NCBI GenBank assembly: GCA_964016885.1
Contig: CAXHJY010000970.1
Location: 1 to 64,000, forward strand
DNA length: 64,000 bases
Source of the DNA: Eledone cirrhosa
Taxonomy: Eukaryota
Direction of reading: 5' to 3'
The notes under the pieces are model-generated. The model was given only the letters and a program-made list of their open reading frames with translations. It was not told the origin of the DNA and did not search any database. Position numbers and translations under genes: made by a program. This document shows positions 1 through 42,040 of this stretch, piece by piece; the first letter of the stretch is position 1; every line of letters starts with the position of its first letter.

Positions 1-2527
1 ATATATATACATATGTTATATATATGTATATATATATATATACATATATATATACATATATATATATATACATATATATATATATATATACATATGTATA
101 TATTATATGTATATATATATATATATACATATATATATATAAACATATATATATACATATATATATATACATATATATATACATATATAATACTATATAT
201 ATACATATATTAATATATATATATATATACATATATATATATATACATATATATACATATATATATGTACATATATATACATATATATATATATACATAT
301 ATATACATATATATACATATATATATATTACATATATATACATATATAGTATATATACATATATATACATATATATATATATATATATATATATATACAT
401 ATATATATATATATATACATATATATATATATACATATATATATAATATATATACATATATATATATATATATATATACATATATATATATATATATACA
501 TATATATACATATATATATATATATATATATACATATATATATATATAATATACATATATATATATATATATATATATATATACATATATATATATATAT
601 ACATATATATATATATATACATATATATATATGTACATATATATATATATATACATATATATATATATACATATATATATATGTACATATATATATATAT
701 ATATTACATATATATATATATATACATATATATATATGTACATATATATATATATATGTACATATATATATATATATATACATATATATATATGTACAAT
801 ATATATATATATGTACATATATATATATATATGTACATATATATATATATATATACATATATATATATATACATATATATATATAATATGTATATATAAT
901 ATATATATATATATACATATATATATATATATATATACATATATATATATATACATATATATATATATGTACATATATATATATATATATATATACATAT
1001 ATATATATATATTACATATATATATATATATGTACATATATATATATATGTACATATATATATATGTACATATATATATATATATATATATATTATATAA
1101 TATATATATATATACATATATATATATATATGTACATATATATATATATATGTACATATATATATATGTACATATATATATATATATAATATATATATAT
1201 ACATATATATATATACATATATATATATACATATATATATATATAATATATATATATACATATATATATATATACATATATATATATATACATATATATA
1301 TATATACATATATATATATATATATACATATATATATATATACATATATATATATACATATATATATATATATATACATATATATATATATAATATATAT
1401 ATACATATATATATATATACATATATATATATATATATACATATATATATATATACATATATATATATATACATATATATATATATATACATATATATAT
1501 ATATATATACATATATATATATATATACATATATATATATATATACATATATATATATATATATACATATATATATATATATATACATATATATATATAT
1601 ATATATACATATATATATATATATATACATATATATAATATATATATACATATATATATAAATATATATATATATACATATATATATATATATATACATA
1701 TATATATATATATATACATATATATATATAATATATACATATATATATATATATATATACATATATATATATATATATATACATATATATATATATATAT
1801 ACATATATATATATATATATATACATATAATATATATATATATATACATATACATATATATATATATATACATATATATATATATATATATACATATATA
1901 TATATATATACATATATATATATATATATATACATATATATATATAATATATATATATATATATATAATATATATATATATATATATACATATATATATA
2001 TATATATATACATATATATATATATATATATACATATATATATATATATATACATATATATATATATATATACATATATATATATATATATACATATATA
2101 TATATATATATATACATATATATATATATATATATACATATATATATATATATATATACATATATATATATATATATATACATATATATATATATATATA
2201 TAATATATATATATATATATGTATATATGTATATATGTATATATATGTATATATGTATATATGTATATATGTATATATATATATATATGTATATATATAT
2301 TATATGTATATATATATATATGTATATATATGTATATATATGTATATATATGTATATATATATATATGTATATATGTATATATATATATATGTATATATA
2401 TATATATATATATATATGTATATATATATATATGTATATATATGTATATATATATATATATATGTATATATATATATATGTATATATATGTATATATATA
2501 TATATATATGTATATATATATATATAT
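1..2527. repeat. Interrupted (TA)n microsatellite; C-interrupted to ~2200, G-interrupted from ~2219
   Basis: Directly visible ATATATAC units switching to ATATATGT units. Confidence 0.97.
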
Positions 2528-4903
2528 GTAAACACAAAAGCCTTCCCTAGTGAGGAATGTACATCCCAACATAGCTTAGTTGTCAGCGACCTCACGGTCA
2601 GAACTAGACGAGCCCTGAAACAGAGGCCAACCTGGAGAAGAAAGATCTGGAAGCTGAAAGTCCCCTCAACCAGTAACAGATTTAAAGATATTTTACTCAA
2701 CGCCTACGACAGTAAAGAAGAACAGATAGAGACATTTAACGTAGAAGAGAACTGGGAGTTCCTAAAAAATAACTTACTAGAGGCGACGGATGAGGTTTGT
2801 GGCTGGAGTAAGACCTCAAGCAGGAGGAGAGTGACTTGGTGGTGGAACAATAAGGTAGATGAAGCAGTCAAGGCCAAGAGACAGGCATGGAAAGAATGGA
2901 AGAACGGGGGGAGCAGGGTACATTACATAGAGACCAAGAGGGAAGCTAGGCGACAAGTATACTTAGCTAGGAGGGAAGCAGAGGATAGAAAATTCAAGCA
3001 TGTTTTACAACGTGAGGACCAGAAACAGAAGGTATTCAAGATTGCGAGGCAGTGTGTCAGAGATAGTTGTGATGTCATTGGAGAGAAGTGTATCCGGAAT
3101 GATAAAGGTGAGCTTGCCCTCACAAGTGCTGAGAAGAAAGATGCATGGAAGAGTCATTATGATAGATTACTAAATGAGGAGAATGCATGGGAAGAAGAGA
3201 CCCTACCCCACGTAGACCCTATAGAGGGACCAGCAGTACAAGTCAGCGGCAGCGTAGTAAGTAAGGCAATCAGAGATATGAAGATAGGGAAGGCAACCGG
3301 TCCATCGGGTATAGCTGCCGAGATGCTGAAGGCATCTGGGTCTGTAGGTCACACTATAACCACACGTATCGTTAACCAGGTAATACTAGAGGGGGCCATA
3401 CCAAAAGATTGGTGCAGTAGCATCATTGTCAACTGCTACAAAGGTAAAGGCGATGCACTAGATAGAGGAAACTATAGAGGTATAAAGTTGATGGACCAGG
3501 TCATGAAAGTAACAGAAAGAGTTATAGCACAGCTGATTAGGGACCGGGTGAATATAGACGAGATGCAATTTGGGTTTGTACCAGGGAAAGGCACCACTGA
3601 TGCCCTCTTCCTTGTGAGGCAATTACAGGAAAAGTACCTAGCTAAAAGTAAGCCACTCTACTTGGCATTTGTCGACCTTGAGAAAGCCTTTGACAGAGTT
3701 CCACGTGCAGTAATCTGGTGGGCTCTTAGAAAACTAGGAGTAGATGAATGGCTTGTGAAAGCGGTACAAGCCATGTATAGGGGAGCAGTCAGCAAAGTTA
3801 GGATTGGCAATGAGTATAGCGAGGAATTTAGCGTACAGGTTGGGGTCCACCAGGGCTCTGTTCTTAGCCCTCTCCTGTTCATCATAGTCCTGCAGGCAAT
3901 AACGGAGGAGTTTAAGACCGGATGCCCATGGGAACTCCTGTATGCTGATGACCTCGCACTCATAGCTGAATCTATGGTAGAACTAGAGAATAAATTCCAA
4001 ACCTGGAAGCAGGGACTAGAGAGAAAGGGCCTCAAAGTCAACATGACAAAGACTAAGGTCCTTGTAAGTAGACGAGAAAACAGAACCCAGATCCCCTCAG
4101 GGAAATGGCCTTGCTCAGTATGTAGGAAAGGTGTAGGTAGAAACTCCATTCTCTGCCCCAAATGCAAACAATGGGTACACAAGAGATGTAGCGGGATCTC
4201 AGGAAGCTTAATTAAGAATGTAGGATTCACATGCAGCAGCTGTGCTGAAACAGCAAGCAAACAGCCACAGGAAACAAGTACCACCAATCTCTGGGAGGGC
4301 CCTGTAGAAACAGTAGACAGCTTCTGCTACCTAGGTGACCGAATTAGCAACGGAGGTGGGTGCTCAGAAAGTACAATAACTAGGGTAAGAACGGGATGGA
4401 AGAAGTTTAGGGAACTACTACCACTGCTAGCTGCAAAAGGCTTCTCCCTCAGAATGAAAGGCAGACTGTATGATGCGTGTATCCGAACAGCGATGTTGCA
4501 TGGTAGTGAGACCTGGGCGCTGAAGGTGGAAGACTTACGTAGATTAGAGAGAAACGAAGCCTGCATGCTCCGATGGATGTGTAACAGTAATATACGTGAA
4601 CGACAAAGCATAAAGGAATTGAGAGAGAGACTGAGCATAAGAGGAATCAAATGCTGCGTGCAGGAGAGGCGGTTACGCTGGTATGGACATGTGATGCGTA
4701 TGAAGGATGACAGCTGCATAAAAAGGTGCAGAGCACTAGAAGTTGATGGAAACCGCGGAGTGGGGAGACCCAAGATGACTTGGGATGAGGTGATAAAAGC
4801 TGACCTTACCCAACTACACCTCTCAAAGTCAATGACACACGACCGTGACTTCTGGCGTCACGCAGTAATACAGGGTACCCGACCTCCCATGGGTACATGC
4901 TGA
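2528..4903 (+). CDS. Uninterrupted but 5'-truncated RTE reverse transcriptase ORF with an internal C4HC3 (PHD-like) finger
   Basis: [68 protein letters not shown] at ~4111-4243. The ORF-track start at 2219 is only microsatellite read-through. Confidence 0.9.
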
Positions 4904-40374: not shown

Positions 40375-42040
40375 ACATACTTATATTTAAGTAACAACCG
40401 TACTAAGAGTGGGAAATGAAATTTCGTTTCATTTTTTCCGTTTATATATATATAGGCTGAAATACGATTCTCGATAATTTATATATATATATATATATAT
40501 ATATATATATATATATATATACACATACACTCACATATACACACTGGTGAATATGTAAATGGTTGCTCAATCTGGCTACTGTTATTAACTGTCAGGCTGT
40601 TGCCATGTGACCTAGTTATGTGCTGGCCCAATCAATTCTACTCCGATAATCTACTTTCCACCAAGTAAAGCGACTAAACATACTTAGACGTATTATGTGT
40701 CAGTAAACGGTTGTAACAATTTTTGTTTGCTTTCATCGATAATAATCTTTCTGAGGCGGATGACTCCTAATAATTAATCGTTTCTAACGAAGACACAAAC
40801 CCACAAATTTGGGTGTTGGAGGTTAGTCAGTTAAACTGACCTAATATTACAAATGATCTTAATTTCTCAGGATTTATTATTTTTCGATGAAGTAATGTTG
40901 TTGTTTTGTAATCAGTAGTTTATTACATTTCTAAAAATAGTTTTAAATCTTCTCTCATTGGGCTTATTTATTTATTTTTTTCCTATTCATTAAAAGTTAA
41001 TGGTAATTATAGCAGGTATCATCATCTCTGTTTGACATATTTTCCATGCTTGCATGAGTTAGACAGGCTATCACATACCTTGGAGCTAAATAGGTCAGGT
41101 GATCAAGTCTTGGTCTTAAACTTCGTTTTCTATGGTTGGATGCCAACCACTTTACAGCGTTTACTTGGAGTATTTAATCAACATGTCAGCACTGCCATTG
41201 TACAGGATGGACTAAGTGTTTTTTGTCGTGACAGCAGCACTGCCACCTTACATGGTAGACTGGATGTTTTTGTCATGACAACAGCATTACCAGATCACAG
41301 GGTGGACTGAGTGTTTTGTGTCATGACAACAGCATTATCATATTAAAGGGTGGACTAGTGTCTATATTTTTTTAATCAGAAACAAAATAGTGAAAAACTA
41401 ATCTAAATGAACTGAGTGATTAAAAAGATGGTAGAAGAGAAACAGCTGAGACTGGTGTAAAGTAAGCCTGTTTACCCTCCACGTGTCGGATAAACAATCT
41501 AATTCTAAATGATTGTCATTTATACCATGTGTTTTAGTCACTATTTTTAGTGTTCATTTTATTTATATATTTATTGTGATGTTTAGCCAGGGCAGAAGAA
41601 AGTGATAGAGAGGAAGAATCAACCCCACTATTGGACTGCTACATGTTTCTATTGGCCCTGAAAGGATTATTAACAATTTTTTCTTGTTATTCAATATTCG
41701 GCCAATTGCAACTGCATCGTTTGTGTCATCAACGAACCTAGAAGGACCAGTGCTTAACTTTTCATTTTATAGCATTAAGGCTCTTTAGATAACTTATCAT
41801 ATTAACTCTTAACGTCCTGTACTGCATGAAACCACATTAGTAAGAAATTCTTGAAAAGTATAAACTAGTATGATAACTGCATCACATTAAATGTAAGTCT
41901 GCCCACAGGTAAAGATACTATAAACGTTTGATTTAATAAACTACTTTAACAAGACATTCTTGTAAAGTTCAAAACCACACTATGACATCATCTATAATTA
42001 AAGTGTTTACTCTAATACTGCTCATTTTATATATATATAT

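Follow-up and report, generated by a model that had tools for sequence, protein, structure and literature searches.

What gathers retroelements of several families, most of them facing the same way, into one field of irregular TA repeats? The question is raised by the start of contig CAXHJY010000970.1 of Eledone cirrhosa (GenBank assembly GCA_964016885.1), of which we analyzed positions 1 to 64000 on the forward strand (the window). Its anatomy was obtained from a tract scan, self-BLAST, open reading frames (ORFs) and Pfam, and the statistics are based on this 64-kb window and on animal host DNA of other species from public collections. These methods bore out the elements, their coordinates and the count of at least seven families in the original prediction for this DNA. 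About 10 inserts lie in or beside about 12 kb of irregular TA tracts, i.e., three RTE-type long interspersed nuclear elements (LINEs; RTE-1 to RTE-3), a CR1-like fragment, two Penelope-like elements (PLE-1 and PLE-2), two hammerhead elements (HHR-1 and HHR-2) and two short polyA pieces. We consider it reasonably probable that an interrupted TA array grew by slippage and was then entered by known TA-seeking retroelements, with the skew in orientation being due to chance plus tail pairing. Read in this way, the locus would be a vivid but ordinary pile-up of TA-seeking retroelements in a fragile repeat. The findings support the proposal that retroelements of several families collect in TA arrays as in a sink, which has been published for Penelope-like clades.

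In the assembly letters, the tracts consist of blocks with a single type of interruption, either G or C. The interruptions are single TA→TG or TA→CA changes set in locally periodic runs. Across the eight blocks of G type, a TGT context, i.e., replacement of an A, was seen for 612 of the 616 G's scored, and the proportion of A's replaced by G was 14–17% in seven of the blocks and 24% in the other. The standard deviation (s.d.) of G spacing was 3–8, compared with 7–18 expected under random placement. Modal spacing differed by tract (6–8, 12, 14, 16 or 20–22), and the longest pure TA runs in the four big tracts were 18–54 nt.

The array opens with a C-type tract (TA with CA; 1–2199) that contains no insert and carries, at 633–1171, about 17 repeats of a periodic palindromic TGTACA unit. 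It switches, without an element, to the G-type tract that forms the 5′ flank of RTE-1 (2200–2530). Further G-type tracts lie between the RTE-1 tail and the PLE-1 left arm's 3′ end (5196–5466), at 16621–18207 (132 G's, with equal-spacing runs of 12 or 16 nt and no GTG doublet), at 25584–26022, at 31745–32786 (where a 14-bp higher-order unit, with spacings of 8 and 6, recurs more than 10 times without phase breaks) and at 39528–39783. The 5.6-kb tract at 19234–24819 is element-free; it is G-type up to an interleaved switch zone at 20578–21100, C-type to about 22410, G-type again to 24570 and degenerate at its end. No element was present at any of the type switches (about 2200, 20580–21100 and about 22410), where G and C runs interleave, with amplified TGTACA units.

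It had been argued that the G-versus-C asymmetry must be linked to insertion. That argument was wrong, both because slippage of one imperfection yields blocks of one type and because the switches occur without an element. Slippage, or duplication in short tandems, would multiply single A→G imperfections until they fill blocks of one type that are kilobases long. We ran a toy model that combined strand-symmetric mutation, TA slippage and short duplication; at a low mutation rate the longest single-type block was 1.9–6.0 kb in all eight runs, at a middle rate it was 1.0–2.0 kb in seven of eight, and at a high rate it stayed below 1 kb in all eight. The model is illustrative, with parameters set by ourselves, and gave 18–49% interruption. 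In compound microsatellites, slippage that duplicates imperfections is described, in the accessible text of Kofler et al. 2008 (PMC2644718), as leading to one strand conformation. The present tracts share with that system motifs that differ by one substitution, a single strand conformation and local duplication; they differ from it, as far as that text goes, in that the blocks here are 1–2 kb long and irregular, within an array of about 12 kb. The interrupted strands were predicted to fold with −5 to −12 kcal/mol per 60 nt, compared with −16.7 for pure TA, and TA repeats are described as cruciform-prone break sites in the part of PMC13645644 available. Because the folds of interrupted arrays have roughly half the stability of those of pure TA, interruption is likely to let long TA arrays persist.

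Two other origins for the blocks were considered and rejected. For an origin of the C blocks by fold-back, no reverse-complement match was longer than 81 nt, and a spacing alignment between one tract (D1) and the C block scored 14.5, the same as the reversed control. The aligned tract and block share a (10,2) spacing motif, a hint of kinship at most. TpA hypermutation as a defence was set aside in view of the intact elements and the absence of TA→TG change from the PLE-2 copies.

Did the array pre-date the inserts? The style of G spacing was alike on the two sides of all five testable inserts, with p values from permutation of the pairings of 0.017, 0.042, 0.025 and 0.167 (for 6, 8, 10 and 12 spacings, respectively) and from comparison with random windows of 0.009, 0.014, 0.032 and 0.048. 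The mean spacing distance was 0.31–0.33 across inserts, 0.27 for adjacent windows and 0.40–0.45 for random windows. This continuity indicates that the TA array is probably older than the inserts, i.e., that an existing array was probably split by them. Successive repeat-seeking inserts would have divided it, and their G-type flanks probably came with the target, as opposed to being produced by the inserts.

Entry into TA by Neptune-type and Hydra-type PLEs, by their hammerhead passengers and by some LINEs is known and was observed here as well. In Naiad, Neptune and Hydra PLEs, TA targeting, partial tandems, inverted copies and tails have been published (Craig et al. 2021, PMC8557442, accessible text). 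For PLE-1 we propose priming at two ends, in view of the 3′ junction on each strand. The plus-strand skew of the other inserts would reflect small-sample chance together with tail–target pairing in the G-tailed LINEs, a kind of pairing proposed for RTE elements in the accessible text of Nishiyama and Ohshima 2018 (PMC6007223). The tail of RTE-1 ends in ATG and matches the G strand; an RNA ending in AUG would pair with the C-containing strand. Relatives of the RTE-1 3′ untranslated region in other hosts had G-rich sense tails at 56 of the 64 loci that could be scored, and (TA)5 was present within 80 nt at none; the 64 were what remained of 121 fetched loci after 56 that were unanchored and one that was short, and they are not independent, several being alleles of one host and a few having false anchors. 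Nicking next to G was considered as a further factor and rejected, because the G's at LINE junctions may belong to the elements themselves or result from how the boundaries were drawn.

We next consider how strong the orientation bias is. Among inserts that face one way only, eight of nine were on the plus strand (two-sided binomial p = 0.039). The sense strand was the G strand in seven of nine (one-sided p = 0.09), or in seven of eight when RTE-2 was omitted (p = 0.035). These values are to be read with the facts that the window was picked for its polarity pattern and that neighbors share tracts, so that G flanks are not independent; n is lower still if, as may be the case, HHR-2 and the polyA piece that follows it represent one event. 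PLE-1 was tallied on both strands, outside the one-way count, because it has a 3′ junction on each strand and so cannot be scored as plus. It had been claimed that the left arm of PLE-1 was the sole exception to plus-strand orientation, but there is also a probable minus-strand insert at 31578–31744, and PLE-1 itself occupies both strands. The related claim that all plus-strand inserts adjoin G-type tracts does not hold for RTE-2, which has a C-type 5′ neighbor and its own TG tail, while RTE-3 has a TA tract on its 5′ side only and the 3′ flank of HHR-2 begins as a mixture (17 G and 11 C in 100 nt). The C-type blocks at 1–2199 and 20867–22414 are indeed free of inserts, as had been stated (p = 0.046–0.068 by length); this emptiness is no evidence of polarity, because a strand rule predicts minus-strand inserts there. 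The shared direction of the inserts is thus a modest pattern that is possibly due to chance.

Several results count against slippage followed by ordinary insertion. The test of spacing continuity had n = 5, used tracts shared between junctions and was not significant by permutation at 12 spacings, and similar spacing across inserts could come from one enzyme active in one region. Our first slippage simulation overshot the interruption (0.5–1.0) and the model was re-tuned, and the G fraction is oddly constant, at 0.14–0.17 in seven of the eight blocks. Tail pairing covers RTE-1 alone; the junctions of the PLEs and hammerhead elements have overlaps of 1–3 nt without G. Finally, the 24 kb that follow contain 11 RTE-type remnants of greater age, six on the plus strand and five on the minus (two of them maybe one element), which also speaks against a skew by chance. 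Since remnants beside the array are unbiased, room is left for a real strand rule.

Such a rule would be independent of family: the G strand would fold back through G–T wobble, the more open C strand would be favored for priming, and the resulting inserts would be sense-G. We regard it as unlikely. It would account for the sense-G orientation of seven of eight or nine inserts and for the restriction of the skew to the array, with older remnants nearby unbiased, and the G strand did fold more stably than the C strand in nine of nine blocks, by 0.8–2.4 kcal/mol per 60 nt and by at most 0.4 per 30 nt. However, this energy gap is small, PLE-1 carries a 3′ junction on each strand, one insert is probably on the minus strand, and the C blocks lack minus-strand inserts. 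At 60 LINE or PLE loci, chosen as the best matches in another animal's DNA, the nearest TA-rich tracts on the 120 sides were of G type at 10, C type at 6, pure at 21, mixed at 6 and absent at 77; no clear rule emerges, although this control is weak, coming from another species and scoring the nearest tract and not necessarily an abutting one. The original prediction had offered, as one of two options, that unrelated endonucleases all use the same strand of the repeat as primer. This option fails for PLE-1, with its 3′ junction on each strand, and may hold weakly for G-tailed LINEs. In its fullest form, in which interrupted TA arrays are one-way landing strips where APE LINEs, GIY-YIG PLEs and hammerhead passengers all prime on the open C strand and stack head-to-tail, the idea seems to us doubtful; if true, a telomere-like polarity would be set by the physics of the target DNA alone. 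A strand rule that held genome-wide would also turn interrupted TA arrays into a readout of the strand that PLEs use as primer in target-primed reverse transcription, and the priming strand of PLEs is named as an open question in the accessible text of PMC8557442.

The other animal's DNA came from a 17.8-Mb genome (G001) filed as a metagenome-assembled genome of Metamycoplasmataceae, which has more than 150 LINE matches and abundant microsatellites, and much of which looks like animal host DNA. The 398 scored genomes of the same order contained no useful host contamination, with one weak match.

The second option was that the irregular tracts are themselves laid down by an element reverse transcriptase (RT), through reiterative, telomerase-like copying. 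A TA(n)TGTG motif that might serve as a template is present after the hammerhead core of PLE-1, as had been noted, and the commonest spacing in the tract 3′ of PLE-1 (40 of 131 spacings) is the same as its 12-nt unit; in addition, the accessible part of PMC3747384 describes slippage on the template at the 3′ tails of LINEs. Copying of that motif should leave GTG doublets, but there were none among the 131 spacings beside PLE-1, compared with 15 of 94 in an element-free C block, and PLE-1 starts about 190–260 nt downstream of the motif. Modal spacing is not fixed between tracts, varying from 6–8 up to 20–22, as opposed to what a fixed short template would give, while tracts lie on both sides of inserts with their style kept across them, and the C blocks are free of elements. 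Among the 11 RTE-type remnants outside the cluster only two end in TA, in both cases pure TA. In the accessible text of Frangieh et al. 2024 (PMC11167929), a PLE protein is shown to initiate internally, to cut AT-rich DNA and to extend both strands, and no repeat addition is reported. Taking together the missing GTG doublets, the spacing continuity and the pure TA at outside RTE ends, we find the PLE-1 motif disfavored as a template and this mode of synthesis decidedly improbable.

Three further explanations were considered. The direction of a transcription unit or replication fork, or orientation selection of the kind seen in piRNA clusters, might bias both the type of mutation that spreads and the orientation of inserts; biases due to the direction of transcription and replication are established for mammalian L1 orientation and germline mutation, and a skew common to unrelated families would be explained. 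C-type blocks within the same region do not fit, nor do the remnants in the adjacent 24 kb (six plus, five minus), and no host exon was found among the 57 frames of at least 62 aa, a search that short exons would escape. We rate a regional cause as improbable. Cephalopod hosts have abundant RNA editing, and the tracts might be fossils of read-through (UA)n RNA that was edited from A to I, reverse transcribed to give sense G in any family, and amplified by slippage. Although this predicts exactly the TA→TG change on the sense strand, we give it very little credence: the G's recur periodically, with much less scatter in their spacing than random editing would give (the s.d. values given above), the G-type 5′ flanks and element-free C blocks are unexplained, RTE-1 variants in sequencing run X1 had no A-to-G excess (A>G 37, T>C 24, C>T 51, G>A 46), TA-rich stretches within PLE-2 were unchanged between copies, and pure TA follows two outside RTE tails. 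An artefact of base-calling or consensus in long TA runs is likewise very improbable. The tract letters are known from the assembly alone, and the assembly has single-base indels typical of low-coverage long reads (nine in a PLE-1 arm and five between copies of HHR-1). A base-calling origin is nevertheless unlikely in view of the exact higher-order periodicity without phase breaks, the interleaved switches, the restriction to transitions, and the like tracts in unrelated assemblies (L124, L126 and L156).

How does the locus compare with telomeric arrays, to which its polarity had been likened? The likeness is half right. In the arrays formed by SART and TRAS (PMC7265360) and by Athena and Coprina (in PMC8557442), as in the window, retroelements are nested in a strand-asymmetric repeat, according to the accessible text of both sources. 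A further likeness is that most 3′ ends of the inserts in the window face the old unique DNA. SART and TRAS, however, insert into a single telomeric repeat facing opposite ways (PMC7265360), so that polarity across families is not the telomeric rule. Further telomeric retroelement arrays are those of HeT-A and TART. Unlike telomeric arrays, the window has no tandem telomeric hexamer, its elements are endonuclease-positive (EN+), and PLE-1 needs DNA ends on both sides. The search for tandem TTAGGG or TTAGG found none within the window. Terminal addition with all elements pointing one way is contradicted by the two-ended PLE-1 and the probable minus-strand insert.

The closest published relatives are the (TA)n-targeting EN+ PLEs of PMC8557442 (Neptune/Nematis, Naiad and Hydra), which resemble those described here in TA insertion, partial tandems of the pseudo-long terminal repeat (pLTR), an inverted 5′-truncated copy, a tail at one end, hammerhead cores and linker zinc motifs. 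They differ in the length by which the two ends of an element diverge (70 nt in PLE-1, 30–40 nt there), and the accessible text has nothing on kilobase-long G- or C-interrupted targets or on orientation. The RTE LINEs of PMC6007223 are alike in having a 3′ repeat tail that overlaps the target and may steer priming, with no orientation rule for asymmetric TA arrays in the text available. A literature search found nothing on cross-family orientation in G- or C-interrupted TA arrays or on edited TA tails, within a reach that most subscription papers lie outside. Under the slippage-and-insertion account, what the locus adds is a Hydra-type element of mollusc-like character, together with a clean view, in genomic DNA, of PLE priming at two ends.

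That view comes from PLE-1, a head-to-head pair. Its left arm (5467–11461, minus strand) is the longer, a partial tandem with a 4130-bp unit and an intact 1217-aa frame, and it has a separate 3′ junction, on the minus strand. The right arm (11460–16620, plus strand) overlaps it by 2 nt and is the inverted, 5′-truncated copy. The arms differ at 11 positions, nine of them single-base indels; their ends fall within one region of the pLTR at a distance of 70 nt, the right arm being the shorter. Two internal start sites, with priming from both cut strands, would produce this arrangement. Pfam found nothing in the single ORF; by motif it contains RT (YVDD) followed by a C-terminal GIY-YIG with CCHH, and a CX4CxxC linker at aa 1084 that fits the CX2-5CxxC pattern of Neptune and Nematis. 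Linker and motifs suggest that PLE-1 is an EN+ PLE of Neptune/Nematis type. Its pLTRs form partial tandems and carry a hammerhead core with stem II, with stems I and III not canonical in the predicted fold. A long asparagine-rich low-complexity insert in the N-terminal half corresponds to 8450–9030.

PLE-2 (32787–39527, plus strand) is likewise a partial tandem, with a 3811-bp unit, an intact frame and predicted hammerhead cores at 35310 and 39119. The motifs of its protein (RWK-like RWR at aa 36, DKT at aa 117, CxCX5C at aa 595, CxxC at aa 693 and CxH at aa 720, with CCHH absent) suggest a Hydra-type element, and the hammerhead core and (TA)n insertion are both Hydra traits; its unit is longer than the <3 kb toward which the Hydra clade tends. 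A homologue named from Argonauta is 36% identical, which, together with the AT-richness and microsatellite density of the window, fits a cephalopod host without being diagnostic. At the 5′ end, 20 nt (32787–32806) are copied from an internal site (33385 onward) before a jump elsewhere in the ORF, and this template switch has a TAT overlap with the tract. Protein kinship between PLE-1 and PLE-2 was examined and discarded, there being no significant match, and a search of viral contigs with PLE-2 and two patterns returned zero matches.

The hammerhead elements are noncoding and on the plus strand. HHR-1 (24820–25584) is a 311-bp tandem of about 2.5 copies, with five single-base indels between two copies and minimal hammerhead cores at 25077 and 25387; HHR-2 (26022–26203) is a short insert with a core at 26051. 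For both, stems I and II are predicted. They scored 17.8 and 18.5 bits, respectively, with Rfam HH9 on the plus strand, below the gathering threshold of 52, and no hammerhead was among the Rfam matches listed for the window (150 of 169).

The RTE assignments of the three LINEs are suggested by architecture, and 3′ microsatellite tails are present. RTE-1 (2531–5198, plus strand) is 5′-truncated, with RT and PHD domains in an open frame and a (GAT)n tail; its homologues carry endonuclease, RT and PHD. The family has a very high copy number in sequencing runs (X1, X4 and X12; no reads of X24 matched), with 3′-weighted coverage. Half or more of its words (from 2531–5190) were present in 12 runs with nine organism codes, and run X4 held a 2396-nt piece with eight differing letters, which is compatible with close kin, diet, contamination or horizontal transfer. 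RTE-2 (27350–31290, plus strand; 5′ boundary inferred) is nearly full-length, with APE endonuclease and RT domains found by Pfam, C2H2 fingers and one frameshift at about 30550–30590. Its 46-bp 5′ neighbor (27304–27349) is C-type, with one G and nine C's, and on its 3′ side it ends in a (TG)n tail that belongs to the element, not in a G-type TA tract; there a TG/TA zone precedes the short T-rich piece that reads on the minus strand. This probable retroposed 3′ end (31578–31744), whose strand is assigned from its tail alone, comprises some 40 nt of unique sequence that include a small hairpin, followed by an A/TAA tail, and lies between G-type tracts. RTE-3 (39784–40380, plus strand) is an older fragment with one stop and 71% DNA identity to RTE-1. 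The other polyA piece (26472–26576, plus strand) has a 40-A tail and follows a mixed or G-type tract.

The CR1-like fragment (18208–19233, plus strand) is 5′-truncated, begins just before YADD and ends in a short tandem tail; motif and tail make CR1 a tentative clade label, and 81 relatives at about 35% were found in the 17.8-Mb genome. Two LINEs (L128 and L166) show, some 120 nt ahead of the match, an expanded TA run within the reading frame that grew from the element's own TA-rich codons before the RT motif, and the fragment in the window is truncated at about the same spot.

Rfam microRNA matches in the window were dismissed as low-complexity noise. Outside the cluster, a hammerhead-like core lies at 42140–42215 on the minus strand, and at 45973–46042 a (CT)n run followed by (GA)n forms a perfect hairpin.

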